From: Rhizaria sp. SCN 62-66 | Lineage: Eukaryota | DNA: 55,441 nucleotides | Assembly (NCBI GenBank): GCA_001724265.1 | Contig: MEDY01000038.1 | Coordinates: 62,001 to 117,441, forward strand | Reading direction: 5' to 3' | Shown: positions 23,347 to 51,216 of the stretch, in pieces | How the letters are laid out: every line of letters starts with the position of its first letter | Numbering within the stretch: position 1 is the first letter of the stretch | Position numbers and translations under genes: made by a program | The notes under the pieces: generated by a model | Seen by the model: the letters and a program-made list of their open reading frames with translations, nothing else | What the model was told of the DNA's origin: nothing | Databases searched by the model: none

Positions 23347-26300
23347 TCACTTGGCGCTACCACTGCCCTCGCCCGACAGCGGCAGGAAGCGCACGACGGC
23401 GTCGACGGGCCGCTTGGTAGGGATGGCACCCGCGTTGGGCTCCATAAGCTGCTCGGGCAGCGCGTCCCAGCGCACCGAGTCGACCTCCCGCAGCGGGGCG
23501 ATGAGATCGCCCACGGTCGCCAAGGTCTCGGCCCACAGGGCGCGGGACAGACAGAGCTTCTTGACCGGGGCCAGGACCGCGCAGTAGAACTCGGACTGAG
23601 ACTGCTGAGACTGCTGCTGATGCGACTGCAAGGGTGACGGCGACGATGAATGTGACTGTGCGAGTGTGATGATGCGGGTCCTCAGGCGGCCCAGCGCCTC
23701 TGCGCGGCGTAACATCTCGCCGCTCGACATCGAGAATAGCGGCAGCGGGCCCTCAGTGGCGTCTAAAGCGGCGCTGTTTGCACTGGCGCCAACGTCAACA
23801 ATCGGGGCGACGCCATCAAACGCTGCCTTGACAGCATTATTTGCACCGCTGCTACGGGAAGCAATAGTGACAACAGCCGGCTGGAGCAAGAACGTGATGT
23901 GCTTGTCAGTAACCTCTGCGGTTGCAGCCAGCAAGGCGTTGCGTTCTTGCTTGGCAGCAGAAGCCTTGTCAAAAACAGCAGCCTTGCTATTATCGTTCGC
24001 AGAGTGAGCATTCTTGCTGTGAGTGCCTTTCGTGTTGTTGCCCTCAGTTGCAGCCTCAGTGCTCGCGGTAGTCTTACTTTCATTGATACTCTTGCTTGCA
24101 CCGTTGCTGCCGTTGCCACTGCCGCTGCTGCTCCCATTGATGGCGAGCTGCTTCGTGCGTTGCGCCTGCTGCACCCGGTACTGCTGCGTCGCGGCGAGCA
24201 CTTTGTACAGAATGCGCGCGTTGGTGATCACACGCGTGACCGTGAGCATGCCTGCCAGCGGCAGCGTGTCGCCGCCGCTCTTACCGCTACTGCTCACGCT
24301 CAAACCGCAGTGCGCGTCCTTGACGGCCGCAACCGCGCGCAGCAACTGCCAGCCCCAGTAGGGCGCGGACAGCGCGGCCACCTGCTCCGCCGCGAGCAGC
24401 ATGTCTCCGGCCGAGCGCGCGCTGAGCAACCGGCCCAGCGACGCCTCCGGCACGGCGCCGCCGCCCTGCGAGCGCGGCTGCAAGCGCCTCGCTTCGCCAT
24501 GCGCGACGAGCGCGGCGGCGTTGTTGTCGGCGATTACCGTGAGCGCGCGCTGGGCCATGACGGCGTCCACCGCGGTCGCGGGCGGCGCGGTCTGCGAGGC
24601 GAGGAAGACCGCCTCGAGCAGGTCGGCGCTGAAGCTGTGCGGCACAGCAGCGAAGTCGTCGGCGTTCTCGGCAGTGTACTTGCTATCGCCTTCACTCTTG
24701 ACAGCCTCTGACTCAACGTCAGACAAAACGTCACCCAAGATCTTGCTCTCCCTCTTATTATTGATATTGCTAGCGACAGCATTGTTGTCCGATAACCACT
24801 CGCGCAAAAACTCCGTGACAACAGCCGCACTGGCGTCATCTTGACTCGTATTACTCTTATTATGAGTCTGAGCCAACGCAAAAGCCGCATCGCCGCAAGT
24901 CACACAGTTCGCAAGTGTGGTTTTGCTGCCGGATGGAACGTTGACACCGCTAAGCGTGTGAAAGAACTCGTACACGTCCTGCTTGCGTCCCCACTTCCCA
25001 AGCCCCTGCAGCACAACCTTGACGTTCGCCTCGGTGACCGGGAGCCCGACGTCGCGCACAGTGGCCACGGCCTCGGCGCCGGCCCGGAGCGAGAGCGCGA
25101 ACCCGTAGGACAGCAGCAGACCGGACAGCGAGGGGTCGGCGATCGCGCCGGACTGGGACGACGCCATCAGGAGCGACCGCACGGCGGACAGCGCGCGGCC
25201 ACCGCCAGCAGCAGCAGAGGCAAAGGCAGTTGCAGCTGCTGTTGGCGTTGTGGTGGTGAGGATAGCGCGGACGAGGGAGCGCAGCAGGCGCAGTGTCAGC
25301 AGCATGTCGAGCGATGTTGACAGCGAATACAGGTGTGACACTAGCACAGAGCGCGGGTGGAAAGCGGGCAGGTGGTGCACTGCGGCGCGGGGGAGACTGG
25401 GAACGCTGGGCTGAGAGCTCGCAGGGGCGGCAGTGGAGTCCTTTAAGGAGCCGCGACTAAACTTGGCGTTGCGCTCAGGGCGGCCCTTAGGAGAAATTGA
25501 ACTCGTGCTTGCATTGCTGTTCAGTTGAGCCGTGTTGTTGTTTTGCTCAACAACTGTGAAGACATCAAGCAAATGCGCGAGTGTCGAGGGGCCGAAGAAG
25601 GCAGATGCGTCGCGCATCGAGGTGTTGAGTCTGCTTTGCGTAGAAGGCGAGCCGCCCCCGTGAATCCCGCTCATAGGGACGACGACGGGCACTGCAGAAG
25701 CAGCAGCCAAGCTCGACACGCTTGGAATGCTGTCAATGTTGCTGTTAGGACCAGCGTTATAGTTATTCGTAGTTGAGTCAGAGGAGCTGTTGTAACTATT
25801 TTCCGTCTCGACATCGTTGCTTGAAGTTGCGAAACCAGCGCCAGCCATCATTGCTGACTGTGCAGTTGTCGTGACAGAAATGGGGTCCAAAAAGAACAGC
25901 TTGTCCGCCGGAACATGTGTCGCCGCGTGCTGCTGCGCCAGATACTGTTGATGCTCGCTCGCGCTACTGGTACTTGCGTTGCTATGAGCGACTACACGGA
26001 GGCTGTGCGCGGTAAGCGGGTCAAAGGCTGCGAGGTACCTGGCAAGGCTGCTGGGGTATGCAGCAGCATTCGTCGCAGCATGAGTGTCACGTTCATTAAT
26101 TGCGCTCGCCTTGTTGTCAAACCTGTTGTTGGACTTGATCTTGCTCTTGTTGTTATATGTACAGGTGGAGTCAACCTGTGTCACATCATTCTGAAGCTGC
26201 TGGTCGCGGTCAGCGCTGTTGTTGCCGCCACTGTGAGTCGCCGTGAGCAGCGCCGGGTAGCGCTCCAGCGATGGCACGCGGCCCTGCAGCGCCAAGTGCC

Positions 26301-29300
26301 AGTCCACGCAGGGAAACGCGGACACGGCGGCCCGGATCACGTCGGCGTCGCTGCCGACGATGCTGTCCCAGTCAAACTGCGACTGCAGCGCCTGCAACGC
26401 CGCCGCGGTCTCAGCCTTCGTCGGGGCCGCGGTAACCGCAGCGGCGGCAGCGTCGTGGCTTTGACTGGGGCTGATAACGTGACCGTGACCGTGAGCGTCA
26501 TGGGTGTCTGAGTAGTACCGGTGGTCGTCACTCGAGATGTCGTTGTGCGTGATGATGGGCAAGGGAATGTAAGTAGCTGGAGCACTCACGCGCGCCGCAT
26601 TAGAGCTGTCAGCGTAGTCAAGCATCCCGGCAGCAACGGAGTCGTTCGCAGTGGCCGTGAGCGCCGCCGCCGCCGCCGTCGTCGCCGCTGTGGAGGAGCC
26701 AGGTTTAACTGGGGTGACCGTAAGCACCGAGCTCGGCGCCAGCGCGCGCTCCACGGCGGTCTTGACCGAAGGCAGCGCGCAGAGCAGCGCGACGGCGAGC
26801 TCGCTGCAGAGCAGCCAGTCGCCGGTGCGCGCCGCGAGGAAGAGCAGGTTATCGATCGCGGCGGCGGTGGGGTGAGACAGCACCGCGCGCGCGACCGGGA
26901 ACGAACCCGTGGGGACGCAAGCGCTGCCAGAGCTCGCGGCGCTGCTCGGGTGGAAGTAGCCGGCCGGCCCGTCTAAGGGGCTCGGACCAGCTTGCTGCGC
27001 GCGCAGACAGCCCGCTGCCGCAGCCAGGAGCTGTGCGGGCGTGAGCGACGATGACAGCGCCGCAATTGCCTGGAGCAGAGTCGACTGCAGAGAGGAGACA
27101 GCGGTCGGCGTGGCGTGCGCGATGCGGCACCACACGGAGGGGGTACTTAGACCGGCACTTAGACTCGACGCAGCGGTATTGGCGTCGACTGATGTGGTGT
27201 AGACTGCGCCGTCGCTGCCCACGGCCACGCCAGTGATTAGGATAACCGCAGGATCAGCCTTCGCAGTCGCCGCGAGGTGTGGCTGCTAGTGGGAAAGGGC
27301 AAAGAGATGCGCAGTGATCAAGTCACACGCAGCGCGGCCGTTGCCGGCGATGATGAATGCGCGCGCAAGCTGAACCACCAGCTCGGCACTGACACCAAAG
27401 ACTGAGACTGAAACGCCACCTGCACTGGGACCAGTCGAAACAAGCACCTCACCTGCAGCAACAACGCTCTGGTTAAAGACACGACACACATTCGCGACGT
27501 TATCCAGTGCAAAGTCCCTCGCCAAAGCGCCAACACTCAGAGCAGCCGCGCTCGCGCTCGGGCTCGCGCCGCCGTGTTTATGCGCGTCGGCGTTCATGGC
27601 GGTGACCGCGAGCAGCGCGGTCCTCAGCGTGTCCGCCGCAGAGCGAGGGCGAGCCTGCACCAGCGACGGCGGCAGCCAGGGGGCCTGGCGCAACTCATCC
27701 TGGAGGCGACTGCCCCAAAAGTAGGCCGCCTTGTCCGTGGCCGCGGCGTCGCCGTCGCTGAGGGTGCGGGACGTCGGGTGGAGCGGGTGAGATTGTGAGC
27801 GCAGGAAGGCCAGGGCCTGCTGGGCCCAAAAGGCGACTTGTGGTGAGACGGACGACAGGGGGTAGAAACCGCTCGCATGCGCCACGCCAGTCAGGCCCAC
27901 AGCGGCAGCAGCAGTGGCCGCGGCAGCAGCAGTGGCCGCGGCAGTTGCAGCTCCAAGAGCGGGAGCAGCAGCAGGAGTCGCGTGAGCAAGACTGATTGCG
28001 TTAATATTGTCAATGCTGTTGTTATACACTGACGCGTAGTCGGCATCGAGTTCTGCTGTTGCAGACGCGTCGGCGTCGGCGGGATCGTTGTAGTTGTCGT
28101 AGTCGCTGGCAGTGTACACGTAACTGTGCGAGTACGCGTCGTCACTCGCACCGGCGCCAGTGCGAGCGCCCATCGAGCTGCTCGGATCGGTACTGTCGCC
28201 AACGCTTCCGTTAAAGCTGTTAAACAGGTTCATTTTGATCCTGTGCACGTTCGCGGCAGAGCTCGCAGCGGCAGTCGCAGCGGCGCCGGCAGCGGCGACC
28301 GTAACAACCTCGAGCAGGTCAGTGACGCGCTGGATGCCGCCGACGTTCTCAGTTGCACCCGCACTGACGCTCGGGATGTCACCGCTACTATCGCCAACAT
28401 TCGCGTGGCTCTGACCGCGCATGCTCCGAGGGCCGCCCTTAGAGCTGTCCTTGGTAGCACTATTGCGAGCATCGACATTCGGCAGCAGACGCGTGAGCCG
28501 CCTGAGCGCGCCCTGCACGGTGTGCGGCGCCGGGGTATAGCCGAGCTGCAGCAAACCACGCAGCAGAACTACGGCAGCGGCCGCGAACGTGCCGGCGCTT
28601 GCGCGAGTCAAGTCAGGCTGGATGAGCACCGGGAACGTCGTCGTCGCGAACCGGTTGTCGACACGACTCGTGGCCTTTCGTGAAGCACGGCCGTTGCGCG
28701 CACTAGAAGAGAGGCCACCACCATCATCGCCACCGTCAGCATAATCATATTCACCGTCTTCGTCGCCCTTGTCGTAGTTGTTCCGGTGGCTGTGCGCGAC
28801 GACCGCGTCAGCGACGTCCCGCAACAGCAGAAACTCGGCGCCCGCCTCCGCGCCCACGTCGGTGAACGCGCCGGGCAGCGTCGCCCGGTCGGCGGCCACG
28901 GTCGCGGCAAGCACGAGCGCGTCCAGCAGCGGCCGCAGCTGCTGCGGGCCGAGCAGCAGCCGCACCGGTGGCGCCGCGGCGACGCCCGCGGCAGCCGCGT
29001 CCGCGAAGGCTGAGGCGGCGGCGGCGGCGGTCGCAGTATCGACCCCGCTCGCGGAGACAGGAGAGCCGGTGGAACCTGTGACACCTGTGCCAGACTTAGC
29101 GTGCGAACCGTTGCTGCTAAGGCCGTCGCTGCTGTTGTTGTTGCTGTTCGGAGAGTCAGTCGCAGCAGACTTGTTGTTGAGAGCGCTGAGCATGGCCTGC
29201 GCCTGCGCCTGCGCCGCTAGCGTCATGTAGCGGTAGCGCTCCGGGGACAAGAACGTGCTGCCTGCGACGGGCTTGAAGCGGTACCACTCGCTGGCTACCG

Positions 29301-30243
29301 CGTCGTTGTCTCGAGGCACGCCGAACATGTCACTGGAATTCTTCTGACGCTTGCCACCGTGCGTGCTCGCATGAGCGGTGCTGTTGTTGCCGTCAAACGC
29401 GCCACTGTGTTTGTTGTTATAGTGAGCGTTCGCGTTGTAGGACTGGCCGAGTCCCTTGAGCGTCGCGTTTACATCAACAAAGAAGGGCGGGTGGTTGCAG
29501 TAGTTCACTGCAAAGAGGTTCAGGTAGCGCATCATCGTCACAATGCGGCCCGCTCGCGCCGTGCGCGTAATCATCACGCTCCAGTCCGCGTAGCTGCGCT
29601 CCACCGGCGGCGTGGCGTCAAAAAGCGCGATCGCATCGTCAATGCCGGTGTTAAGTGCAGTGGCGAGCGCAGCTGTCGGACCGGCCAGGAAGAACTCGAT
29701 GACGTCGTCGTTGGCGTCGGAGCCAAAGCCGCCGGGCAGCGCGGAGGAGGCCGCCGCGGCCTGCATGTGTCTCGCAGCCGATGCCAGGTCGTGGTGCTGC
29801 AGCGGCGACAGAGAGGAGGGCAGCGTTGAGAAAGGCGCAAACGGCGAGGAGGAGGACGATGTTGATGCGGAGGGATACGTGGCGTAGCAACGTGCCGAGC
29901 TCGTCGTCGCAGATGCGGCCGCTACAGTGTGTAAGAGGGGGCGGTGCGCGTGGTGCGAGAGAGACGAGAAGCCCGGCACTGCCACTGTTGCGGTCGCAGC
30001 AGTCGTCGCAGTCGCTTTCGCAACGGTGGCGATCTTGCAAGCAGCAGCAGTGGTCGCGGCAGAGGCGGAGACAGGGACAGTGTGTACCAAAGGCTTTGCG
30101 AGCAGAGAAACGTATGTCACAGGCGCTGTCGCTAATCCCGCTGCCGTTGCGGTCGTGGGAAGTGTCGAATTGGCCGCGGTGACGAGCGCGGCGTGGCCGC
30201 ATGATGCAGTGTGAGCGACGGCTCGAGTGACGGCGCGGCGCAT
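23347..30243 (-). CDS. Very large divergent PPR-like, probably organelle-targeted protein; one 2,299-codon frame with a single internal TAG at 27286-27288
   Basis: ORFs 27286..30243 and 23347..27228 are in the same frame, joined by TAG plus 19 sense codons (QPHLAATAKADPAVILITG). PPR-like helices occur on both sides (DDAIALFDATPPVERSYADWSVMITRTARAGRI; VGLPVTEANVKVVLQGLGKWGRKQDVYEFF). N-terminus resembles a presequence. Terminal stop is TGA. Confidence 0.6.
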
Positions 30244-30739
30244 CTGATACGGAGGGAATAAAGAGCACTGAAGAAAAGATAAGAAATAATCTGCGTAAAA
30301 TCGTCAACAATGTTGACGATATCAAAATTTTGTGCAAGATAACGATGCTACCGTGGAGAACGACGCGTGGATAAGACAAGCCCGCAAACTGGTTTGCACG
30401 CTGGCGTGGGCGTGCTTTTGAGGAGTACCCTTGGGGGTCGACATAAAATGATGCACAGCGCCTCATTTTGTTCGTCAATAGCTCTGAAACTCAGTGTGCC
30501 TTAGTCACTGCTTTGTTTGGATTTTTAATTTAAACCGTTTTCTGTACAGTCACATTTACCTTTCTGTGTACCTTCTTTCTTCTCCTTCATCCCCACCGTC
30601 GTCGACCGAAGCCAGCTTTCTCATCCTCTCTCAATCCAGCGCCTCTGTATCAAACCCACTGGCTCTGAAGCTTACAAGCCACTTTTTCCACGCGCTTTTA
30701 TTGCGCAAACAAATCTGTTTGTGGTGACTATCGCTCGCT

Positions 30740-31228
30740 ATGTCCTACCACGGCGGCCCTAACGCGGCCAGTCCCCCGCCCTCCCAGTCCGACGGCCAGC
30801 TCGTGGCGCAGCACCGTCCCCCGCACTTCCAGCCCGACGACCAGCTCATGGCGCTGAACACGCTGCTGCACCGCGCGATTTGCTGCGCGAGCAACGTCAG
30901 CACGGCCGCCTCCGAGGGCAGCCAGGCCTCCAGCTCCGTGCAGCAGAGCTCGGCCGCCGCCAAAGACAGCAACGCGCGGCGCGTGGAGCGCGTGACGGAG
31001 CTCTCCAAGGCGCTGCGTGAGCTCCAGGCCGCCGGGCTGGCGCTGGACCCGTCGATTACGGTCCCGATCGAGGTCATGAGCGCCGTGGACAACGGCATCA
31101 ACCCGGCGCTGATTGTGTACGACGCCGTTGAGCACCTTCGCGTCGTGGGCGACCAGGCCCGCGGCGGCGCTGTGGGCGCCGCGCTGGCCGCCGCAGCCAT
31201 TGCCGAGCAGCTGAAGAACGAAAAGTGA
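30740..31228 (+). CDS. MED10: Mediator complex subunit 10 (Nut2)-like, 162 aa
   Basis: ITVPIEVMSAVDNGINPAL...DQARG resembles the Med10 VPxEVxxxIDxGxNP...xxxKG motif, and the size fits. GC-rich codons. Stop is TGA. Confidence 0.7.
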   Translation: MSYHGGPNAASPPPSQSDGQLVAQHRPPHFQPDDQLMALNTLLHRAICCASNVSTAASEGSQASSSVQQSSAAAKDSNARRVERVTELSKALRELQAAGLALDPSITVPIEVMSAVDNGINPALIVYDAVEHLRVVGDQARGGAVGAALAAAAIAEQLKNEK

Positions 31229-32014: not shown

Positions 32015-33858
32015 ATGAGTTCCTTCCGGAAGCCTACCGCTCCGCAGCCCGCGCCCGCGGCCGCCGCGGCCCACGCCCGCAAGCCCCTGTACACTGGCGC
32101 CGCCCCCGCCACCAACTCCGCCGCCGCCGCCGCCCCCGCGGGCGCTGCCGCCGGCGGCGCCACTGCCGCCAAGCCCGCCTCCGCTGCCGCGGGCCCCGCA
32201 AGCGCCGCGTCGGGCGTCAGCGCCGGCAGTCTCGCGAAGCAGATGTCGTCCCTGGAGATCGTCAACCGCTCCCGCCGCCGCCTCTCCGTGATGGGCGGCG
32301 CCAACAAGGGCGAGGAGGCCGACCTCGACGGCCGCAAGAGCGGCGACTGCGACGCGGACCACTCGGACATCATCCGCCAGGTGCTGGAGCAGTCGGAGCA
32401 GGAGAGAGCGCAGCCCAAGGAGGTGTACAAGTCCTTCTACTCTCTCTCCAAGGTCGGATACGTGCCCTTCAACCCCTACAAGGTCAATCAGGTTCGTCTT
32501 TCAACTAAAACTCGAGATATCTCCGCCATATTTTGGACCCAACGCAAACTACACATAGTACAGTACTGATGTCTATTTTCTGTCGTGTATCACAATGCAC
32601 AAATTTAACTTTAGCGAAGTTTATCATGTAGTACATCAAACAAATATCTCACAACCACTCCACTTTATTTGGCTTGCCTTGCTTTTCCCTTGTGGCGTCG
32701 CCCTATACGCGTCCCCTCGCTCTTTCAGGACCGTGCGTGCGAGGTCGCGCCCTTCGGCAAGCACACCGAGCGCGCCTTCTTCGGCGTCTTCGACGGCCAC
32801 GGCCAGCACGGCCACATCGTGTCCCAGTATGTCGCCACTACCCTGCCCAAGTTCGTCGCCCGCGCTCGCGACCTCGAGACGGCGCCCGCCGCCGCGCTGT
32901 CGGCCGCCTTCGTCGCCTGCAACTCCGAGCTCGCCACGGGCGGCCGCGTCGACTGCACCTTCTCTGGCACCACCGCCGTCACCGTCTACCTTGACGGCAA
33001 CCAGGTACGCTTCATGGACACTCAGGCAGCAGTCAAGATAGATTGCATGAGAACAGTCTTTGCTTGATATCTCGACAGATATAATGCCTTTCAAGCTTCA
33101 ATTGGACAAATGGGATCTTGTGGTATTTCGTGTCTATATCAGCACTCTATTTCACCCCTCTCACATATACCTTCATTTTTATGTCATCAATGCGACTCTA
33201 TTTAGGTCTATTGCTGCAACGCCGGCGACTCCCGCGCCGTCATCGGCCGCCAGGGTCCCGGCGGCAAGCTCCGCGCCCTCGCGCTGTCGAGCGACCACAA
33301 GCCCGACCGCGAGGACGAGCGCCGCCGCATCCTGGCGAGCAACGGCCGCGTCGAGGCGTGCCGCACGGCGTCGGGCATGGAGATTGGCCCCGCGCGCGTG
33401 TGGCTCAAGACGCAGGACGTGCCCGGTTTGGCCATGACGCGCTCCTTCGGCGACCTCGTGGTACGTCGCTTTGCCGCTGCATATGTAACTTTCACAAGGT
33501 CTTCATTTTCATCCAAATTATGTTTCGCTTAGTCAAATCCAGTTCAATTATCTCACATGCTTGTCCTCAATCCCTTGTTTTGTGCTTCTGCGCTACTGCG
33601 CGCGGGTAGGCCGCGTCAGTGGGCGTGATCGCACGGCCCGAGATCGAGTCCCACACGATCGACGAGGCGGACCGCTTCATCATCATGGGCTCTGATGGCG
33701 TGTGGGAGTTCATCACGTCGCAGGAGGCAGTGGATATCGTTGCCGAGGCCGCCACGCCCCAGGAAGCATGCGAGCTGCTGCTCGCCGAGAGTGACAAGCG
33801 GTGGCGCAATGAGGAAGAGGTTGTGGATGATATTACGGCGCTCGTGATCTTCTTCTAA
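32015..33858 (+). CDS. Protein phosphatase 2C (PPM family); exons 32015-32491, 32729-33004, 33206-33460, 33610-33858; ~418 aa
   Basis: Motifs KVNQ|D, FFGVFDGHG, SGTTA, NAGDSR, DHKP, GLAMTRSFGD, GSDGVWEF, DDIT. Three phase-0 GT-AG introns. Stop is TAA. Confidence 0.93.
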
Positions 33859-36208
33859 GTGTGCGTGAGTTCCTTAGATATCGGCACATGTGATTGTTTA
33901 GGGACATGAGGTTGCGGACTCGTACATGCCTGCAGCATGAATAACGCTCAATGCGGCCACACGAACACAAACACACTCACATGTTTACCTATTTGCACAC
34001 CTGCACACAGACGCACAGCACACGTACCCAAGCGTACCCGTGTGTACCCCGTGCGCTCCCCCACACACCCCTGTACTCTTGTTCCCACACAACAATATTT
34101 ACTTGTTTCTGTTTCCACAAAATCAACCACTCCCCGTTTGTCTCTATCTCCTCCTTTGGCGTCACTATGTGTCCTCCTCGCGTCGGGTCAGGCTCTGTTT
34201 GCGCTCGCACACACACGCACGCGTCAGCCAGTCAGTCACCTCCTGCTTACGGTCACCGAATTAGCGCTCTTAGCCACTGCCAATGCGGGACCACGAGTGA
34301 CGAACGTATCACAAACAAGACATAGCACGCAAAACACAGCATAACTCCTGTTATTCGCTGTGTGTGTTTGTCTTGTTTGGTTTTGACTTGTTTTTGTATA
34401 CCTTTGTTCTTTTTATCGTTCCGTTTGTTCGCTCTCCTGTTTTTTCCTCCGTTTTGCACTTAGGCTTTTGTATCACAACCACACGTGAACGCAATATCGG
34501 TCGAGAAGAGCAACTTGATACCAGTTAGCAGATGCAATAATAATACGTTGTAGGTTTGCTCCATCGAGCATTGCCTGTTGTCGAATGTTGTTGTCTTTGC
34601 TTGATGGTCTTGCTCTTGTTGCATGTATTACTGTTACTCTTCCCGTCGTTGTCAAAAGTTCTGGTTTTTTCGTTTTTTTCACTCTAACACACGCATGCAC
34701 GATCGCGTTTCTCGTCTCATCGTCTCACAGCTTCACCGTCACGTCACAGTCACACAGCCGCCATAATGCGTTTATCCACACGTCTTTTGAGTTCGATTTC
34801 TGGATTAGAATAACAAAAATGAAAATCACACTTGGAATACTAGAAGTATTAAGAGTTCTATTATTTAAAATCAACGTTATAGTTTGTGTTTTCATTTTCC
34901 CTTCACTGCGCAAGTACTTTGCCGAGGTTAAGCCTTTCCAGCCGAGCCGAAGTTAAGCTCTTCAACTTAGCTCTGCTTCGGTCTTGCTGAGCTTTTGCCT
35001 CTGCGTTGTGTTCACTTCTCTATTATACCATAGTAGCCCGCTGCTGCTTCTGATAGACTGTGTGTGCTGACTCCTGCGACCTGCCGCTGCCACTGTCTGT
35101 CACTGCCACTGCCGCTGCTTCCGGCCGCTCACAGTCACTCAGACACAGTCGCAGTCGTCGTTGCTGTTACTGTCGCTGTAAGCTGTAAGCTGTTAGCTGT
35201 TGCCATTTCGCACTGGTGCTGCTGCTGTTGTTGCTGCTGCTGCTGTATTGCGTTTTGTGTCGCCGTTTTTTTTTTTGTGACTGTTTGTCTCTGTTGTCGT
35301 TGTTTGTTTGTCGCTTTGTGCTTTCACTTTTTTTTGACCACAACAAGCATGCTCTTCGTCGTCATCTTATCATCGTCATCGTTGCTCATTGGTGTTGTTT
35401 TATGACGTCGTTGTGTGTGGCTGCTGGTTGTTGTTGTTGTTGTTGACATCTTTTCTTCTCTTTTGCTTCTTCTTTAGTGTTTTTTTCCCCCGTCCTGATG
35501 TAGATATTGGTATTTTTATCGTTATTGTTGACTGTATGCACTTAGTCGAATTGTAGAAATTTAGTTTATGTTAGTTTAGTTAGCTCTTTTGTCGCGCGTG
35601 TTGATATGGGATATCTACAAACGTCGTTTGTTTGTTGTGTTTCATTCTGCCTCACACTTTGTTCATATCAGCTGTATTTCTGTTTCTTACGGCTGGCTTG
35701 TGTGTGCCAACTGGGACTGTTGCAGTGCAAACGCACTTTACAGCTCTCCGCATCCACCGCCACTCGAGTCTCTTCACAGTCGCACTCGCTCTCTCGCTCA
35801 CTTGCGCTTACATCATCCACACTTGCAGCATACAGCTAAGTCACAGTCAAACTCAGTCAGTCCATCAGTTTTGTGTTCTCGATCATTCAAAAGTAACCGA
35901 ATTAGTACACGTGTTGACTAGCACATCTTCTTTTTTTTTAACCAAAAAGAAAAACAATCTCTCTCATCGAGATAAGCGCGCTCCACGATTGACTCTGACT
36001 CTGGCACGGCAAAGAATCATACAAAACCCTCTCTGAATCACACAATCGACTAATTTATTAGTGAGACCACTCGAAATAACGAGACAGATTTGATTTTCAC
36101 TGGATGGAGAACATACTATGTCTCAACTATTACTCAGTGTTCACAGAAAAACTCTAAGACAGCCATTATCAAAATTCTGCATTCTGCTAGTGGTCAAGCT
36201 CTTCTGAT

Positions 36209-36228
36209 CTTCTCGAATCTTCGGGAAG
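36209..36228 (+). promoter_or_regulatory. Heat shock element (four alternating nGAAn units)
   Basis: cTTCtcGAAtcTTCggGAAg, about 105 bp upstream of the DnaJ start codon; matches the canonical HSF-binding arrangement. Confidence 0.75.
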
Positions 36229-36332
36229 CCTCGACTGGGGCGGCAAGCTGGGTTTGGTCCACTTTGCAGGTGTCTCGATCGAAGTCGTGCAAACGTCAAT
36301 TGTGCACAGTACATACGTGAGTATATACTACC

Positions 36333-39307: not shown

Positions 39308-40892
39308 ATGGCTTCCGTTCCCCTGCCGGACCATAATACCGGTGCTGCCCCCACCTCCGTTTCCGCTTCTAATAACGCCGCGGCGGGTGGTGCTTCTTCC
39401 AGTCTCGCTGCCGGTTCTAATGCGGGTGCGGCCACAATGACGCTCGTCCCGACCAACCCGGCCGCGGCGGCCAGCGCCGAGCAGAGCGCCAAGAAGTCGT
39501 CCCGTCAGTCGCTGAGCTACGCCGCCGAGCGCATCGTCGGCAACGGCTCCTTCGGCGTCGTGTACCAGGCCACGGTGATTGAGACGAACGAAGTGGTCGC
39601 CATCAAGAAGGTGCTGCAGGATCGCCGGTACAAGAATCGTGAGTTTGACATCATGTCAATGCTCAAGCACCCCAACGTCGTCACTCTCAAGCACTCGTTC
39701 TACTCGCCCAACGAAAAGGGCGACGTGTTCCTCAACCTGGTGATGGAGTTCATCCCCGAGACGGTGTATCGCACGCTGCGCACGCACACCAAGGCGCGCC
39801 GCATGGTTCCGCTCATCTACACCAAGTGCTACATGTACCAGATCTGCCGCTCACTCGCCTACATCCACTCTCTCGGCATCTGCCACCGCGACATCAAGCC
39901 CCAGAACCTGCTGCTCAACACGCGCACGCATGAGGTCAAGCTCTGTGACTTTGGCTCGGCCAAGGTCCTCGTCAAGGACCAGGTATGTCACGTCACACGC
40001 TCTCTTAGTCCACTAATTGTCCACCTATATCGCTTTGAATGAACGTGATACGCAATATCAGCGCAACTTTTTGATTCATTCACGCTTATCTTTTTTCTCT
40101 TTCAAAATCACATATCTCACGCGTCTTGTGTCTTCTTTTCTTTTTTCCATCCGTTACGTCGGTTGCCTCTTTTCACAGGAGAACGTGTCGTACATCTGCT
40201 CGCGCTACTACCGCGCGCCGGAGCTGGTGTTCGAGGCCGTGCACTACACGACGATGATCGACATCTGGTCCCTGGGCTGCGTGCTGGCCGAGCTGCTTCT
40301 GGGCCACCCGCTTTTCCCGGGCGAGGCTGGCGAGGGCCAGCGGTTCGAGATTATGAACACGATGGGCACGCCCACGCGCGAGGAGCTGGCCGCCATGAAT
40401 AGCCAGTGCCCGCACTCGCGGTTGCCCAACCTGCCCAACCAGCCCTGGAGCAAGGTCTTCCGTGCGCACTCGTTCCCCGAGGAGGCCATTGACCTCGTCA
40501 CGTGCCTGCTGCGCTACGACCCCACCAAGCGCCTCACGGCTTTCGACGCGCTCGCGCACCCGTTCTTCGACGCGCTGCGCGACCCCGAGACATCGATCGT
40601 CACCGGCTCGCACAAGCCGCCGCCGAACATCCACAACTGGACGGCCGACGAGCTGACGATGATGGCGCAGCGCCGCCTCGCCAACCGTCTCATCCCGCCC
40701 TACGTCGCCATGCAGATGTCCGAATCGGCGCTGCGCCGCGCCGGCTACGACTTCACGGCCCCCGGTGCGATCCCCGTCAGCGCCGCTGGCTCCGTCGCGG
40801 CACAGCCCGTGTGCGACAGCAGCAGCGGTGTCGCCGCCGGCGCGGGCGCTGCGGGCGGCGAGAAGGAGAGCGTTGTCGCTGCGGCCAACTAA
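39308..40892 (+). CDS. GSK3: Glycogen synthase kinase 3 / shaggy-like kinase; exons 39308-39982, 40179-40892; ~462 aa
   Basis: Motifs [58 protein letters not shown]. Phase-0 GTATGT..CAG intron. Stop is TAA, followed by TGA. Confidence 0.95.
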
Positions 40893-43800
40893 TGAGTCGG
40901 TTGCTCCAAGTGAACAATCACAATTTTCTTCCTCAAAGTTGTCGCACGAATGTCGTTACTTGCGGCTCATACCACCCCCCACCCACTAACTGGCTGACTT
41001 GAACTCTCATGCACACATTTCTATATAGTAGCTTGGTCACAGTACTAGTTGTTAGTACGAAAACAAAGTTACACTGCTGTTGCGAATGCTTACAAGCAAA
41101 AGTCACAACGACTCCTAGACGACGCTGAACACACGAGCATGTATCATTCAGAAGACAACCGTAAACAATCACTGCAACAAAGCAAAGTGTAAGCTTTCAT
41201 TTTCACAACACGAGCAGCCACAACGAATCGTAGCTAAGATTCATAACGAAGTTAAGATCGTTGCTATATGCCTTGCTGGTTTGTTGTTGCTTTGCCGCTT
41301 CTTTTTGTTTTCTTCACCACCTGGGCAACTTATCGCGCTCGGCAAGTGATAAGTGCCGCTGAGCTTTGCGTCTGTACACACACACACTACACATACGTCT
41401 CACTCGAGTGCTATAGTGACGGCGCACCAGTGAAACTGACGACTGGCTGAATGACTGACTTGACTGCCGCTGACTCCGACCCGTCAGCCCTTTTGACAAT
41501 GGCAACAACAGTGCTCTAGGATTTGAGAACAAGGAACAAGAAGACTTAATTAGGACGAGAATGAAACTCAAAAACACAACAGTGATCACGATAGTAACAA
41601 TAATAACAACGTCGTAGTACCTAGCACTACTTTGCATTTTGTTTTTTTTTGCTCCTTGCCTTTGTGTGTGATGCTTGTTTGCACCTCTCAGTGCGGTGTG
41701 TGTCTTTGTGTGCGTTATATTGACTCTGACTGTGACTCTGTGACAACGTTACTAGTGCTCTTAGGACCCTCTTAGTACTGTAGTATGATAACAACAACAC
41801 CGCGCGCGCGCGCACACACACACACGCTCACGCGCATGCACACGAAGGCACGCTGAACGGATGCGACGACTGAACGAAGGGTACGCCTGTAAGTCTACGG
41901 CAAAGTACTGCTTACATCTCCGCTCTCCTAGTCCGCCTCCGTCCGTTGTTGCTGGTCCTATCTCTTGCTTGCTTGAAAGCACTTTGATCTTGTTTTAAGC
42001 CTCCTGATTTCGGTTTTGTTTTTTGTTTTTACTCTTTATTATGTTTGTTTTGCTCTTGTTTCACCTCTGCTTGGCGTCGCCTAGCGTTGGTCTTGTCTAG
42101 TTTTCTGCAGGGTTTTTTGTGCATACTTGCCTTGTCTGTATACGCCTCCATCCCTCCTTGATACGCGTTTGTCTGTTTACACTTTTTTTGCTTGGTTTCC
42201 TGTTCTGTGTTTGCTTCTGTTCTCTACTTCGCCTCTGGTTCGTGTTTTTTTCTGCTTTTCGTTTGAGATTAAGTTGGGATGGGGCTGCGAATTTGTTTGT
42301 ACATGTATGTGACTGTGCCACCAAACATAACTGCGATCATGTGACTAGCCTGCTGCAGCAATACTTGCTTACACGCACTTGTTATCACTGTTGTTTGTCA
42401 CAACAGTACTTAACCGGTGCGCATGTGGTACTTGTTGTGTGTGCGCTTACAACGTCCCTTTATGCTCTGCTTGCCACAGCTATGAGATTGTTTTTATAGC
42501 CAGGTTTTTAGTGTAAGTATGTACATTGCAACAGCAACAAAGTTAAGACAGCGAAAAAAGAAAAGAAAAAATAACAAAAATATTCCCAAATCATGACAAA
42601 CCTTTTGTCGTTTTATCGCTGTCGTGGTGTTGTTGCGTGTACAGAATGTATCTTCATTCCTTTTGTAATCAGTAATAATAACAAGAAAAAAAAGAAAAAA
42701 GATGTGTTTTAAAGCAATTTAGTTTTAGTGCCGTTTGTTTGTTTGTTTCGCTTTCTCTTTGGCTCTACGAAGAAAAAGCTTGTTTTTCGTCATTCTTAGT
42801 TTGTGTGTTTTCTTACTGTATGTGTTTCCCCGCTAACTTGCTCCTGCTCGCATTTGGCTGTGGTTTACTCTCTCACTGTGCTTGTTGTTAATGTTGTGTC
42901 GCACTAAAAATTGTGGTTATTTTAAATCAATGATACTATTTGTATTGTATTGACACCTCTAATCGCCACCATCTGCTTCCCTCTATCACAAACGTAACGC
43001 AACCGTGTTACTTGCAAGATCGACGACGACGACAACGACAACAACAACACAATGACGACACCCACGACAACGGCGACAAACGAGTTACCGCTCTACAGCT
43101 ACAGTTCAACATTTAGTCCACAATTACAATTACAACAATTACTACTACTACTACGATTTACGCGTTTGTTGCGTAATAAAACAGCACAACACAACAGCAC
43201 ATGGCTGTCGTTCACCGTACCTGTACGGAAAGATATTAGTATAGAAAAGATATAGAGAGACCTCTTTTAGTTTCATCAATCATTACAATAATTCACGCTC
43301 TTTACTATTCATAGTACGTACTATCTTCCTCTATCTTCCCGTCGTCATCAATCATCATCATCATCATCCCATTGTAACTAATGTTCCGTACATCCATGTC
43401 ACAATGCTCTGAATTGTTTCTCGATATTAGACGTTGTTGACCTTGCCGTTGTGGCTTTTTTTTACAAGTTTGTTCCGCGCATTGCATTTTTTTTTTGTGT
43501 GTGTCAGTCAAAGAATGACCCACACGCACACGCATCTGAAGCTTCATTCGCTGCGCTGTATTACAGTTGTTTTTGTTCTCAAGCTTACTATAGTAGTCAC
43601 ATTTACAGTCATATTCATCATTACTGTCATTGTCGCAGTAATTACCTCAATCACCCATCATCACTGTCACTGCTTCTGCCTTAAGTGTACATTAAGATCA
43701 CTGTTACGTCGGTATGTCCTACTTTGCGTTACCTTCGCCTAAACTTCTCTCTCTCTCTCTCTGGTTTTTTGATCATCATGCTGCGTTTCTGTGCTTAAAC

Positions 43801-44665
43801 CGTCTTCTTTTCTGTACTTTGTGTGCTCTCGTCTCTTTTTGTGTTTGTTTCCCTCTCTTTTAGTTTCTTCTTTCTCTTTTCGACAATTCTTCATGTGTTT
43901 GTTGTTTGCTTTGTCGTTGCTTTTTTGTATACTCCCACGTTCAGCGCATTACTGCTGATCATTAACAACAAACAAGAACACACAGTATCACACCTGATCC
44001 TCGCTAACATGCTGTCTCCTTCCACCTCTTCTCATCAATGACGACACAACACGCACGATCTCGCACATATTGTATCTAACACCCAACACTTGTTGCTTTC
44101 CTTGTTGTTGCTCTCACTGATTCTGTGAATGTGTCTCAATGCTCCAAGAGTGTGTGTCACTGTTGTTTCGTACATGTCTATGCGCCTCCTCATTCTTTTA
44201 TGCACACTTTACTCGAATTATAATACATTGTGATAACAATAACAAAATTTGAACTCGCATCAATTGTGTCCGAAAATGGACCTGTTGTTCCTTTGTGAAT
44301 GCTAAAGGATTCTTTTATTTGTTATGATCAATTCTCGTTGAATATGTGAAATTTTCGACACAGAGACAAACCACTTGAAAGAAAACGCACAGTGAACTAC
44401 ATATCGAGCGGAAGAAAAAGGTAAGAAGATATTGATGTGTGACAGCGTGTGACTATGGGAAATGCTCACAGTCGTATCACAGGAGATCACATGAACACAA
44501 GAAGAAATAAAGAATGAAATGATCAGGATAGATAATCAATGATAAAGGAACAACAAAACGGGTGAAATATGCGCAAGTGCGCATGACACAACAAATCATG
44601 CAAACAACACCAAGTGATAGTGAGCACAAAAATGCCATCGCTCATGTTTGCTACACCTCGCTTCA

Positions 44666-47600
44666 TTACATCGCTTGCTGCATGAGTGAATAAACCATCT
44701 TGAGCGCATCGCTCTCGCCCTTGTCGAGCCCGTCCTCGCCCACAAAGGAGTCCGCGCCGAGCCCGCCACTCACGCCCGCGAAGCTGAAGGTGCCCACGGT
44801 CATGTTAGAGTGCGAGCCCGGCCCGCATTGCTGCGTGTTGCCGAAGCCGTGAGGCCCGAGCCCGGTGACGGGGCCGACGTCGCTACTGCGCAGCGTGGCC
44901 GTCAGCGCGGCGTACTCCTGCGACACGCGCTGCGTTTCGGTCGCCGCGGCGACACAGAGGCGCGCCGTGCGCAGGTGCGCGGCCGCACCCGAGTCGGAGC
45001 CAGAGGCTGAGCCGATGCCGCGGCTCTTGCGCGCCGCCGCCAGCGCCTGCTTCATCGTCGCGACCCCGGGGGCGTTGCCCGCCGTGGCGCGCGCGTTGAG
45101 CGTGTTCATGCTGTTGGCGTGACTGCTGCTCAGAGACACGGCGCCGGACTGAGACAACACTCCGCCGCGGCCGCTTGCGCCGAGAGCGACGCCCGCAGCG
45201 CCGGCGCCCCCCGTGATGGGGAAGCGGCCCAGCGCGATGTCGCGCTCGCGCTCGCGGCGCAGCGTCTCCTGCCGCTCCCGCAGCCGCGCCACCTGGCGCG
45301 CGCGCTCGCCGCGCAGCAGCGCCACGCGGAGCTTCAGCGCGCGCGCGAGCCGGTCCCGCGCAATGAGCTTGACCGCGAGCGCCTCGCCGCAGTGGCGGCA
45401 CGCGGCGGCCGAGGCGGAGCTCACGCCGGAGCCCTTGGTCGACCCCGCACCACCTCCGCCGCCGCCGACGCCGCCAATGGCTCTCGCGCTGGCGCCGAAG
45501 ACGCGCGCGGTCGCGACGGCGCTGCTGGAGGTCGTGCTCGCGAAGGCAGACTGCGCCGAAGGGCTGTTCACGCTCTTCGGCGTCGCGCCTGCGCTCGCGC
45601 TCGCGGGAGAGCCGTTGGCGGTGTTGCTGGGGAGCGGAAACGTGACCTGTTGTACGTCGTCGTCGTACAAGCTGTCCTTGTTCGCGTCGAAGGAACAGCC
45701 GCCTCCGCTGCCGGCGTGGCAGAAGAGCGCGTAGCACGCGAGCTGGTGCAGCGCGACCTCGTCCAGCGCCTCAGCAGCGCCCACGTCGCTCTCGCCCGCG
45801 CCGCCGCCGTCGCCGGCGGCGATGCGGGCACGCACGGCGGCGGCGGTGGCGGAGGCGGCGGCGGGCGTGGCGACGAGCTCGGGGAAGCGCGAGCGCAGCG
45901 CGCTGTAGTACGACAACGGGAATGAGAACGCCACCGCTGGCTGGACGGCGATCTTGCGGGCAGAGGCGTCGTCCGCAGAGCTCTGGCTCGCGGCGAACGA
46001 GAACGGGAAAGCGTCAACAGTGTTGCCGCTGTGGCTGCTGTTCTGAGCGGTGTCGATGGGGTAATTGTGGTTGTACGCAGCGGAGTTCGTCTCGAGAGAC
46101 AGTGGGTGCGTGAACGTGCCGTAAATTCCGTTGCTATAACCGCTTACCCCGGCTCCGGCAGCGCTGCTGCTCGACACGCTCAGTGCAGCCAGCGCGGCGA
46201 CCGCGTCGCTGCTGCCGCCGTTGCAGCCTGTCGCGCCGTCGTAGCCGCTCTTGGGGAGGCTCGTCAGCACTGCGCTGCGCGACAGCAACTGTGCGAGCGC
46301 CTGCGACTGTGTCAGTGCCTGCGAGTTGGCGAGCCCCGCGCGGCTGCGGCCGCGGCTCTGCCCGCTGCTGCGCAGGTTCGACCGCAACAGTAGCTGCGAC
46401 TGCCCAAGTGGCGAGCCCTCGCCCGCGCCCGCGCCCACGCCCGCGCCCGCGCCGTCGCACACGTCAGCGCTGAACGTGATGGTGCCGGTGCTCGCGGTGC
46501 CGCTCTTGCCCTTGCCGTAGCTGCTGGTGTTCGCGCTGGCGGGCGCAGCGGTGAGTGCAGCGGGAGACACGGGCTCGACGGTGAGCGCGCGCTGCACGCG
46601 CCGCATGTCGGCCACAAGCGCGTTGAAGGCATCGCCGAGCGTGATCTGCCCATGCACCCGCGTGCCCGCAGCGCCCCCGCGCGCGCCATGCGTGCCATGC
46701 GCGCTGGGGGTGGAGGCGAAGAGCAGGCGCGCGACGGCCGTGGCCGCGGCGGGGCCGACCTCGCTGGCGAGCGCGCGCGTGAGGTACGTGCGCGAGAGCG
46801 GCAGCGCCAGCACGCGCGCCGTGAGCTGTGACAGCGACTGCGCGGCGGGCTGCGGCGGCGCCAGGCGCGTCGAGTAGCCGCCGCCGCCGCTCGCGCGCAC
46901 GGTCACGGCCAAGCTCGCGCTTCTGCTGCCGATGTTCAGAGACTCCGCAGTGGAATCGACGCTAGCGTTGTTGTCCTCGTCGTCGTAGTAGCCGTGGTTG
47001 TTGTTGTCAACGGGGTTGGTCTTGGTGGCGTAGACGGAGGACTGGGTGAGAACGCCAAGCAGCGCGAGCGTGCGGAGCGCAACAAACACGCGCGCGTGCA
47101 GCACAGACACCACAAAGTGGCCGAAGAGCACCATCAAACCGCTGTTAGGCCCGCTAGCGCCCGCGCCCGCGCTCGCGATGGAGATGAGCGCCTTGGTGAG
47201 CGCGGCGAACTTGAGGTAGGCCGCCACGAGCGCCGTGGCCGCGCTGGCCCCGACGCCCGCGCTCGTGCTGCCGGTGCTGGTGCTGGCGCTGTTGCTGCCG
47301 GCGCCACCGGCGGTGGTCGACGAGAGGAGCTTGCGGAGGTGCGGCGGCGACAGCAGCGCGTCCCAGCAGCAGCACTGCGGCGCCGGCGAGGCCGCGGTGG
47401 TCACGCCCGCGCTCAGCACGCCATGCGCAGAGGCCGCCGCCGCCGTCGCAGCGGCTGCGGCGGCCGCGGTGGAGCCAGTGCCAGCGCCGCCACTGCCCGC
47501 GCTAGCGAGAGCGTTGTTACTGCCGCCGCTGCCCGCGCCGAGACCGCTCACGCCACCGATGTTGCTGTTGTTGTTGGTGTGGCCATGGCGGAGGGCGCCG

Positions 47601-50276
47601 CCGGTGTGGGCGAGCGCGAGCACGGGCGTAGTGGGCGGGCGGTAGTACTGCTGCGCGGCCGAATAGAGCGCCTCGGCGCAGGCAACGGCGCGCGGGTCGC
47701 TGTCGTCGACGCTGTAGAAGTCGCCCTCGAGCGCGCCCGTGAGGCGCACGCCGTAGGACGGCGCGGCGGCGACCGCGGCGGCGGCCTCGGCCACAGCCAG
47801 CGGCACCGCGGTGGCAAAGGGCAGCCGCGTCAAGTGCGCCAGCGCGGGCGTCAACGTGGGCGACGCCAGCGTCACCAGACCGGCGCTGCTGCTGCTGCTG
47901 CTACTGCTGTTGCTGTTGCTGCTGTTGGCGGTGACGACGGTGGTGCCGATCGTGGCGCAGCCACGCACGGGGTAACTCAAGCCGCTGGGGGTCGTCGCCG
48001 TGTCAGAGCAAGCGCCAGCGCCAGCGGACGTTGTGTAGGCCAAGGCCGAGGAGTGCAGGTGGGGGAAGGGAAAAGCAGTGGCAGCCAGGGGGGCGACGCG
48101 CGAGGCGGCGGGGCGCCAGGCACGCGTGCCGCTCACGGTCACCTGCGACGTCGACGCAGAAGAAGAAGAAGAAGAAGAAGAAGAAGACAGCGAGGAGTCA
48201 TCGTCGGAGCTGAGACTGCCAGTGCCGTCCTTGGCGAGCGTCGCGTTGGCCTTGCCGGAGGGCGAGTGGGGCGCGAGTGCGTTGTTGAACCGCTTGCCGG
48301 TGACCTGCGCGACAATGAGCGCCGAGAGCGCCACCGCGGTGCGTGGCTGCGCGAGCAGTGCGGAGACCAGGTCGCCGGGCGCGAGCGGCGCCGAGAGGCT
48401 TGCGCTCGAGACGCCCGAGGCCGCCAGCGGGCTCAGGCCGGCGGCCGTGACGGGGGGCTGGTTCGTGCTGGGGACGCCGAACGTGGAGGCGCTCACGGGG
48501 CTGCTGGCGCTGGCGCTGGCGCTGGCGTTGGGCAGGTAGGGCTCGGCGACCGGGACGAGCGTGGCGAGACCAGAATAGGCGCTGTGGACACCGGCAGCCT
48601 TTGTCTTCGCAGTCTTCGCGTTCGTGCTGCTGCTCGTGCTGTTTGGGGAAAGGATGTTGGCGATGGCAGCAACTGTGGCGACACCTAACGGAGACGCCGA
48701 TGACAGCGACGACAAATCATCACTCGAACTCGAGCTAGAGCTAGAGCTAGAGCTGGGATTGCTTAAGAGAGAGCTCGTGACTGGGATGAAAGGGTGCGGC
48801 GACAGCAGCAGCTCCGTCATATCCCCCGCACTGGCGCTCGCACTCGCGCTGCCGTTGGTGCTGGCGCTAGCGTTGTCGTCGTTGTCGGCGGTGATCGCGT
48901 GAGTATGTGTGGTGGCGAGCTGGAGCTGCTCCAGCGTGGGCGCGGCAATCGCCCCGGCCTTGGAGTGGAGGTACTTGAGGAGGGCCGCTTTTTGCTGGCC
49001 GGTGAGGCCGTCAAGCACGGGCAGACCGCCCTCCCAGCCGCGACTAAGCCCCTTAGACTGCCGGATAAGCGCTCCATTAGATCCATCAGCAGCGTCACTC
49101 TGGTGATGCTGCTGATCCAAATCATCACTACTCATACTATCAGAGGGAGAATGGGGAGAGACGCATGTGTTGCCGCCCCATCCGCGCTGCGCGCGCGTGT
49201 CGAGGCGCGCCCGGGCGTTCGCGCGCGCGGTAGTCTTGCCGGTGTCGACACCGTTGGCCACGGCGCGCGCGGCGGCGACCGAGAGGCAGGCGTCGTCCGA
49301 GGGCGCCAGATGGCACGCCGCGGCCGCCGCCGAGGTGGGCGCGAAGCCCGCGGTCACGCCGAGCGTCGGGGCGGGCGCCGAGGGGGGCGCCACGGGCAGA
49401 CAGGCGCCGGAGCAGCCGCCGCCGCCGCCTGCCCCGCCAGTCGCGCACAGGCTGTTGTTGGTGCTATCGCCATGATTGGCTGCGGAGGCGGCGGTGGTGG
49501 CAGAGTTGGGGTTGATAGTGCGCGCGTGCTGGTAGAGGTCACCGTCAATGGGGCAGCCCTGCTGCGCGAGGAACTCGACGGCCTGCGGGTAGAAGGGCGT
49601 GAGCAGCCCGATGGCTTCGTGGTCCTCCAGCTCCAGCGCGCGCCGCAGCGCCGCGGCCGTGGTGGGCCGCACGGCGTACTCGGACAGGAAACGCAGCAAC
49701 AGCGGCATGTTGCCCGTCTCGGTCAGCGCGAGCAAGCACGAGTCGGCGGCGGCGGCGCGGGAGAGCGCGAGGGAATGCGAGTCGGCAGCACGCGGAGCGA
49801 AAGGCCGGTGCGCCATAAGGAGCGCGACAGTCGAGTCGAGCCCCATCCAGATCGCGGTCAGCACAGCGCACTAGACGCCGCGGTAGTACGGCACCACGGG
49901 GTCCGCGCCCGCCTCGAGCAGCGCCGAGACGGTCGCGTCGGCGGTGGGCAGGCGCGAGCGGACGGCCAGCGTCAGCGCCGTCTGCTTGTGCACGGGGGAG
50001 ACGAGGTTGGGGTCGGCGCCGTGCTCCAGCAGCAGGCGCACGATCGAGCGACGGCCGTTAACGGCAGCAACCATGAGCGGGGACAGGTGCGTGTAGCAGT
50101 GGAGCACGTTGAGGCGCGCGCGGTTGTCGCAGAGCATCGTCGTCGCCGTGCCCAGGTAGCCCTCCTCGCACGCGTAGAAGAGGCGCTCCGTCGCGGGCGG
50201 CATGTGCGGGGCGGAGAGTGCGGACTGGGACAGCATGTGCGAGGCCGTGACCACGGTGTTCGTGCCAGCGGTCGAT

Positions 50277-50309
<33 letters not shown>

Positions 50310-50632
50310 GCAGCGGCAGCGGCAGCGGTGGCAGAACCAGAGCCGGAGCCGGAGCCAACAGTCACAATTTTGCCAGGGATGGTGCTGTTGTTGTTGTTGT
50401 GCACGGACGATGACTGGGAGGAAGGCGCTTCAACCACCATCTCGGGCTCAACGCCGGTGTTAGTCCAGGCGGGCAGCGCGGGGAAGCGACGCGCGCGGCG
50501 GTAGTCGCAGTAGCCGTGGTGGCTGACCTGGTACTGGGTGAAGCTCGAGGTCGAGCTGGCGACGCTCGAGTACGCCTCCGTCGTGCTCTTCAGCAGCGGC
50601 GGCGCGCCGACGAGCGCGGGGGGCGACTGCAT
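44666..50632 (-). CDS. Large ankyrin-repeat protein with a long low-complexity body and C-terminal predicted coiled coil; one 1,989-codon frame with a single internal TAG at 49871-49873
   Basis: Ankyrin repeats (LFYACEEG, SPLMVAAVNGRRSIVRLLLEHGADPN, TALTLA...LLEAGADP) continue in register across the TAG (RGV*CAVLTAIWMGLDSTVALLM). ORFs 49871..50632 and 44666..49864 are in frame, two codons apart. Terminal stop is TAA, followed by TGA. Confidence 0.75.

Positions 50633-51173: not shown

Positions 51174-51174
<1 letters not shown>

Positions 51175-51214: not shown

Positions 51215-51216
<2 letters not shown>

Follow-up and report, generated by a model that had tools for sequence, protein, structure and literature searches.

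The 55,441-nucleotide stretch of contig MEDY01000038.1 analysed here, called the window below, is eukaryotic DNA in which genes with a high G+C content at third codon positions (GC3, 0.7-0.93) are separated by AT-rich spacers. Two long genes on its minus strand, gene 1 and gene 2, each contain exactly one in-frame stop codon, and in both cases this codon is TAG. An earlier note on this DNA had pointed to this pair of genes and had suggested that UAG encodes an amino acid and that UAA and UGA are still stops. The two in-frame TAGs are confirmed, at 27286-27288 (TAG1) and 49871-49873 (TAG2), and their interpretation as a reassigned codon is partly supported. Both lie inside continuous coding frames and mark neither an intron nor a gene boundary, and no gene of the window ends in TAG. 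The features concerned are as follows.

23347..30243, minus strand: gene 1, about 2,298 codons (985 before TAG1 and 1312 after it), an orphan of low complexity, ending in TGA
27286..27288, minus strand (CTA on the plus strand): TAG1, in the context CAC TAG CAG CCA CAC
44666..50632, minus strand: gene 2, about 1,988 codons (253 before TAG2 and 1734 after it), ending in TAA TGA
49871..49873, minus strand (CTA on the plus strand): TAG2, in the context GGC GTC TAG TGC GCT
50636..50638, minus strand: a further TAG in the frame of gene 2, one codon upstream of its likely start ATG (50632)

The stop-to-stop open reading frames (ORFs) around TAG1 on the minus strand run over 27286..30303 (1005 aa) and then, in the same frame, over 23347..27285 (1312 aa), and those around TAG2 over 49871..50635 (254 aa) and 44666..49870 (1734 aa). 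Counting TAG as a residue joins them to 23347..30303 and 44666..50836. The claim that the frames stay open for more than 1,300 and more than 1,700 further codons was thus reproduced (1312 and 1734 counted). There is no other in-frame stop across either TAG, whereas the two other frames do carry stops, and no further stop or frameshift occurs over the whole of the two downstream stretches. The GC3 of gene 1 is 0.71 and 0.74 on the two sides of TAG1; the 150-nt windows next to the codon have 0.58-0.62, and those at a greater distance 0.76-0.88. At TAG2 it is 1.00 in the 50 codons before and 0.84-0.96 after. The GC3 coding periodicity is kept downstream of both TAGs, with which a very recent mutation is still compatible. 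The third TAG, at 50636-50638, probably belongs to the 5′ untranslated region; GC3 is 0.60 over the 50 codons that surround and precede it, and the sequence does not look coding.

The possibility that the TAGs belong to introns was rejected, as the context of both is exon-like. Introns in this DNA are few, short and AT-rich, with the ends GTAYGT...YAG and a GC content far below that of the exons, and one of them is seen spliced out in the run X5. We found no GTAYGT donor or AT-rich stretch near TAG1, and nothing intron-like flanks TAG2 either; an intronic position, which the earlier note had held to speak against its own proposal, applies to neither. Two adjacent genes in place of one were rejected as well, since no AT-rich spacer lies at either TAG and the first ATG after TAG1 is codon 221, with coding-like sequence in between (GC3 0.78; 0 stops in frame versus 4 and 3 in the other frames). 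Because there is no ATG for 220 codons in spite of these coding features, the post-TAG1 stretch cannot be a separate gene.

A one-off assembly error was rejected because the breaks recur on other contigs. A protein of 121 aa (P0132) encoded on a separate 2,148-base Logan contig ends exactly in ...PYYRGV, just before TAG2, and P0001 (1726 aa, 3 contigs) begins at the first ATG after TAG2. P0130 (1291 aa, 3 contigs) corresponds to the post-TAG ORF of gene 1 and begins shortly after TAG1. P0001 and P0130 are unchanged across their 3 contigs each (sources MGnify, ENA and Logan); the contigs behind all three proteins are known by source, not by run, and may share one data set. A longer, read-through version of gene 2 was not found in the protein collection.

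We also compared the window with contigs of four runs (X3, X4, X5 and X7) over the region 34000-53900, which has TAG2 inside and TAG1 outside; the depth of the organism in these runs was about 5-7. Run X3 had a single difference to the window over 19.9 kb, at 46049, and 0 other letters in its 8 listed pieces, and run X4 had 0-2 other letters per listed piece. The difference at 46049, the only one listed inside gene 2, is synonymous, a single data point. No other letter at 49871-49873 was seen among the 40 of 65 difference rows listed for the four runs, in which no listed piece bridges TAG2; this is a hint that TAG2 is the same elsewhere. An exact search with 24 bases beside TAG2 gave 0 matches in metagenome_contigs and 0 in genome_contigs.

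These comparisons bear on the explanation that the TAGs arise from an artefact or from hidden processing, that is, from a shared base error, a heterozygous allele picked by the assembler, U-to-C RNA editing or an unconventional small intron. Such an origin is helped by the low depth, by the possible derivation of the break-sharing contigs from one data set, by the position of TAG1 outside the compared region, by the lack of a listed piece that bridges TAG2, and by the assembly errors that do occur in such data (e.g., a T7 homopolymer frameshift in the dynein contig L001). However, the near-identity of run X3, the absence of another letter at 49871-49873 among the listed rows and the exon-like sequence around both TAGs, unlike the AT-rich introns, argue against it, and substitution errors that create a stop twice in 55 kb are unlikely. 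We regard this explanation as improbable.

The other genes of the window were assigned by Pfam as an rRNA adenine dimethylase (Dim1), an enoyl-CoA hydratase, a TRAPP subunit, an axonemal dynein heavy chain, Med10, a PP2C phosphatase, a DnaJ protein, a protein kinase and two tandem ankyrin genes. Our reconstruction agrees with the earlier count that the 13 reconstructed genes end in TAA (9) or TGA (4) and in no case in TAG, and a possible 14th small gene ends in TGA.

1035..1037, plus strand: TAA of the first gene, which is cut at its 5′ side
1457-1459, minus strand: TAA of Dim1
3723-3725, minus strand: TAA of the enoyl-CoA hydratase gene
6485..6487, minus strand: TAA of the dynein heavy chain gene (I1-alpha/DNAH10 type; at most 5,087 codons, two exons, no in-frame TAG)
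33856-33858, plus strand: TAA of the PP2C gene
40890-40892, plus strand: TAA of the kinase gene
44666-44668, minus strand: TAA of gene 2
51339-51341, minus strand: TAA of an ankyrin gene
53225-53227, minus strand: TAA of an ankyrin gene
6143..6145, plus strand: TGA of the TRAPP subunit gene
23347-23349, minus strand: TGA of gene 1
31226-31228, plus strand: TGA of Med10
37775-37777, plus strand: TGA of the DnaJ gene
21968-21970, minus strand: TGA of the small ORF, a possible gene

The kinase gene (40890-40895, plus strand) and gene 2 (44663-44668, minus strand) both end in a tandem TAA TGA. No in-frame TAA or TGA was found in 12,296 codons, a count that omits the later PP2C exons, the last Dim1 exon, the J-domain exon and the small ORF; the apparent ones all lie in introns or at gene ends. 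For 0 of 13 terminators being TAG, a small sample, p is 0.028 at a TAG share of 24%, as in long environmental dynein ORFs (12/50), and 0.081 at a share of 18%, as in the GC3-rich ones among such ORFs (3/17).

The organism is probably a rhizarian, because the window dynein clusters with Bigelowiella. A FastTree tree of 34 dynein rows places it inside a clade of 13 with full local support, whose sole named member is Bigelowiella natans, the others being unnamed metagenome proteins; the placement was made with one gene and a quick tree method. The stretch 44000-53900 was matched in bioreactor, wastewater and activated-sludge runs from six studies, and the contig is thus from a metagenome. Taken together, the source would be an uncultured, intron-poor protist of wastewater bioreactors with GC3-rich genes, probably belonging to Rhizaria.

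Nuclear codes in which only UAG has changed are known from a handful of lineages, namely one rhizarian, one fornicate and three phyllopharyngean ciliate groups (PMC5304391, PMC11687900). In the rhizarian exLh, UAG is Leu, UAA and UGA are stops, and 384 in-frame UAGs are reported in 71 genes; UAG is rarest in highly expressed genes and many UAGs stand at conserved Leu positions (PMC5304391). As in exLh, only UAG is found in frame in the window, and UAA and UGA are the terminators with UAA the commoner (56:15 in exLh, 9:4 here). The two organisms may belong to the same supergroup, judging from one dynein gene and FastTree, whereas exLh was found in an insect and the window organism in wastewater reactors. 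In the fornicate Iotanema spirale, UAG is Gln, the terminators are UAA (104) and UGA (15), and 204 in-frame UAGs occur in 126 genes (PMC5304391); the window shares the UAA/UGA terminators and, if its TAGs are translated, the sense UAG, and UAG is a minor codon there too (~8% of Gln codons). In phyllopharyngean ciliates, UAG is Leu or Gln, UAA is kept as the preferred stop and suppressor tRNA genes have been found (PMC11687900). That case, which came from metagenome and genome mining, would resemble ours in that UAG alone is affected and UAA kept, but sense UAG is reported to be widespread there and the window, GC-rich and with a dynein grouping with Bigelowiella, is not ciliate-like.

The best explanation in our view, although a tentative one that we hold with a little less than even confidence, is that TAG is decoded as an amino acid in this organism, fully or leakily. 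On at least some occasions the ribosome would insert an amino acid at UAG, UAA and UGA would end translation, and synthesis of the products of genes 1 and 2 would run across the TAG to give a single long protein each. UAG would be very rare because it is poorly decoded or because the change is young, would survive only in weakly constrained genes and would not be used as a gene end. Translation of the TAGs, and the residue inserted, are what we infer beyond the codons themselves; Gln, for which Iotanema and near-cognate readthrough offer an analogy, and Leu, for which the rhizarian exLh does, may be the candidates, and they are not told apart here. The earlier proposal of a sense UAG thus stands in part: introns, pairs of genes and a one-off error are excluded and the pattern is that of UAG-only codes, but no defining test came out positive.

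If TAG is a sense codon, this would add a further, accessible case, since the organism is free-living and recurrent in wastewater communities. Its proteins would then be wrongly cut in public collections, where the entries of gene 1 and gene 2 begin after the TAG. In the literature from 2018 on, supplements apart, we found no report linking Rhizaria, Cercozoa, the genetic code and UAG; nor did we find, supplements again apart, a report on eukaryotic metagenome-assembled genomes (MAGs) with variant codes from activated sludge.

Both genes are poor in recognizable relatives. Gene 1 matched no Pfam family, and a search with the 1200 residues around TAG1 against 1.84 billion representative sequences returned only its own post-TAG ORF (P0130) and one weak match. 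The N-terminus of gene 2 consists of ankyrin repeats (Pfam Ank_2, E 6e-12), and the match ends 8 residues before TAG2; the tail is a long orphan sequence of low complexity without a Pfam family. A search with the TAG2 region found its own pieces and generic ankyrin proteins only. An ankyrin repeat seems to cross TAG2 by eye and in a MAFFT alignment of 3 sequences, but we do not rely on this, as no Ank match follows the end of the Pfam match and the BLASTP alignment to the paralogue does not cross the TAG. The alignment of gene 2 to the neighbouring ankyrin paralogues across TAG2 was not significant. AlphaFold2 modelling of the ankyrin region read through TAG2, run with no alignment, gave a mean pLDDT of 47 and was unusable. 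These paralogues, at 51339-52121 and 53225-54139 (both minus strand), lie in tandem and adjoin gene 2, itself an ankyrin gene at its start, and have in common the motifs ALYERVKS.GAAALAGLT.DQLNTAAGD at the N-terminus and EFERVK at the C-terminus.

A number of observations weigh against decoding of TAG as an amino acid. With 2 occurrences in the 12,296 codons, TAG is less frequent than the rarest sense codons (ATA 6, AGA 7 and CGA 9) and far less so than its would-be synonyms (CAA 42, TTG 75, CTA 24 and TTA 15); if it were used like ATA, two or fewer would be expected with p ~0.06 (Poisson). The earlier note had ascribed this rarity to avoidance in GC-biased genes, which fails because TAG itself ends in G and yet is outnumbered by all of these codons, those ending in A included. 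Unlike in exLh, there are 2 TAGs in ~14 genes here and none lies in a conserved gene. Unlike in Iotanema, whose lineage is unrelated, TAG would make up 2 of ~454 Gln codons (0.4%) if it were Gln. The conserved genes (dynein, kinase, DnaJ, enoyl-CoA hydratase, the Dim1 exon, TRAPP, Med10 and the ankyrin genes), ~8,000 codons together, contain 0 in-frame TAGs, so that in-frame UAG in many genes, conserved ones among them, was not seen in a window that is perhaps too small for this. The dynein lacks an in-frame TAG as stated earlier, but its length is at most 5,087 codons in two exons and not ~5,280. The dynein of the relative L001, 89% identical, terminates in TAA, and no TAG is in frame among its ~5,000 codons, an uninformative result. 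No residue can be aligned to either TAG, because both genes are orphans. Within the window, the only DNA searched for them, there are 0 tRNA genes and 0 Rfam matches, and eRF1 is not encoded there; under a reassigned UAG, a suppressor tRNA with a CUA anticodon and an eRF1 with an altered N-domain would be expected in the genome.

The terminators also allow another view. In Guttulinopsis vulgaris, a sainouroid rhizarian with the standard code, nearly all terminators are UAA (PMC5304391), so that gene ends are almost never UAG, as in the window, though UAG is there most likely still a stop. By this analogy the 0 of 13 TAG terminators may be a mere preference. The missing TAG terminators are no proof of reassignment, because this standard-code relative of exLh also almost never ends its genes in UAG. 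In contrast to the window, Guttulinopsis has no confirmed in-frame UAG in the account of PMC5304391, where a single case was a sequencing error.

The most serious competitor keeps the standard code and takes both TAGs for real nonsense mutations of recent date, either fixed or present as major alleles, in two long, fast-evolving and dispensable orphan genes whose frames are still open for lack of time. We consider this quite possible, if on balance doubtful. Both genes are of low complexity and without a homologue among 1.84 and 5.8 billion proteins, that is, of the kind that tolerates a nonsense allele, and TAG is missing from the conserved genes and from the dynein of the relative. From codon usage, 62-75% of the single-base nonsense changes in genes 1 and 2 give TAG, and two TAGs out of two would be expected ~45% of the time from chance nonsense; the fact that both stops are TAG therefore carries little weight. 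Lone in-frame stops also occur in metagenome contigs. Across 80 metagenome dynein loci (279,156 long-ORF codons, not de-duplicated), we counted 17 lone stops with at least 200 open codons on each side, of all three stop kinds, and ~5 of them have flanks as long as those seen here. The populations in other runs are near-identical to the window (X3 and X4), and a young allele could thus be everywhere.

Against two nonsense alleles speaks the coincidence of finding both among ~14 genes in 55 kb: 0.22 would be expected and P(>=2) is ~0.02, at a rate of ~5 comparable events in 279,156 codons, which also counts in-frame introns, errors and other codes. Neither a second lesion in the 1312 and 1734 downstream codons nor a loss of coding periodicity is seen, the single difference listed within gene 2 changes no amino acid, and the 0 of 13 TAG terminators are left unexplained. 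The data do not separate reassignment from two freshly broken genes. If the TAGs are nonsense alleles only, the finding is an ordinary one.

Among the lone stops, a single in-frame TAG lies in the dynein ORF of each of the metagenome contigs L043 (6748-6750) and L054 (3231-3233). The dynein of L043 itself ends in TAG, and its in-frame TAG is thus an error, an allele or a readthrough site.

Another explanation that keeps the standard code is programmed, site-specific UAG readthrough in both genes, each of which would yield two proteins, a shorter and a longer one. The bases CAG CCA come after TAG1 (27283-27297, minus strand) and fit the type I motif UAG-CAR-YYA of the tobamovirus type (PMC3542737), whereas those after TAG2 do not, and the extensions here amount to thousands of codons. 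By the codon usage of the window, CAR followed by YYA should occur with a frequency of 3.6e-4 per site (452/12,296 x 120/12,296), but the match at TAG1 was noticed after the fact and TAG2 (TAG TGC GCT) fits no known motif. The known readthrough extensions are short and are not stretches of 1312-1734 codons making up the greater part of the protein. The downstream RNA shows no unusual structure relative to shuffles (z -1.31 and -0.25), and the terminators, 0 of 13 TAG, are again left unexplained. Programmed readthrough in both genes is, in our view, very improbable.

Coming back to the decoding of UAG, we think it unlikely that a reassignment has matured to the state seen in exLh or Iotanema, and plausible that it is young or inefficient. 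One version, which we think rather unlikely though worth stating, is an early or ambiguous stage in which UAG has been given up as a terminator, is decoded inefficiently and has so far entered only a few weakly constrained genes, at ~1 per 6,000 codons. The decoding agent at such a stage could be a suppressor tRNA of recent origin, or near-cognate tRNAs together with a weakened eRF1. With UAG so rare, the organism could show the first steps of stop-codon reassignment, and an early stage, if true, would be a natural example of the intermediate state postulated by theories of code change. It would then also be the second case in Rhizaria of UAG alone having changed, whether related to exLh or of separate origin.

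The remaining features of the window are these.

18134..18270, minus strand: dynein intron, 137 nt, GTACGT...AATAG, AT- and T-rich, phase 0
39983..40178, plus strand: kinase intron, 196 nt, GTATGT...CACAG, with Pfam kinase halves on both sides
33203..33205, plus strand: TAG as an intron 3′ end (TTTAG|) before a PP2C exon, not coding
33607-33609, plus strand: second TAG as an intron 3′ end in the PP2C gene, not coding
21968-22681, minus strand: small GC-rich ORF between dynein and gene 1, ~237 aa, rich in Ala, Gly and Pro, no Pfam family

The dynein intron is flanked by Pfam DHC_N1 on one side and DHC_N2/AAA on the other, in different frames. The kinase intron is the one spliced out in a contig (record 20) of the RNA-labelled run X5, where 196 bases with GT..AG ends are skipped. 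The small ORF has a coding-like score over 22007-22561, and its status as a gene is uncertain. On the plus strand, a 1,579-aa open frame at 9350-14089 (GC1 0.93) runs antisense to dynein; it arises from the extreme GC3 on the sense strand and is no gene, so that long ORFs alone mean little in this DNA.

In the population comparison, the kinase exon at 39511-39946 (plus strand) showed 21 listed differences to contigs of X4 and X7, of which 18 are synonymous; these kinase-like contigs, which evolve under purifying selection in the same communities, belong to a paralogue or a related species. Neither a coding-like ORF nor an Rfam match was found in two AT-rich regions (33900-36450 and 41000-44600; 2.5-3.6 kb, GC 0.40-0.45, T-rich on the plus strand). 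Contigs of the RNA-labelled run X5 nonetheless cover them, and 11 of the 15 listed full-depth population differences fall within them.

Among the metagenome dynein contigs, L081 and L082 were rejected as close relatives, being intron-rich with a GC content of 0.47-0.51. They are eukaryotic dynein contigs in genomes filed as bacterial MAGs (one Verrucomicrobiaceae) and are thus mis-binned. The contig L001 is probably a transcript, because it is intronless over 15 kb. At 6030-6045 it contains a run of 7 T inside the conserved motif ...FF.TMNPGYAGR that shifts the frame, likely a homopolymer error.

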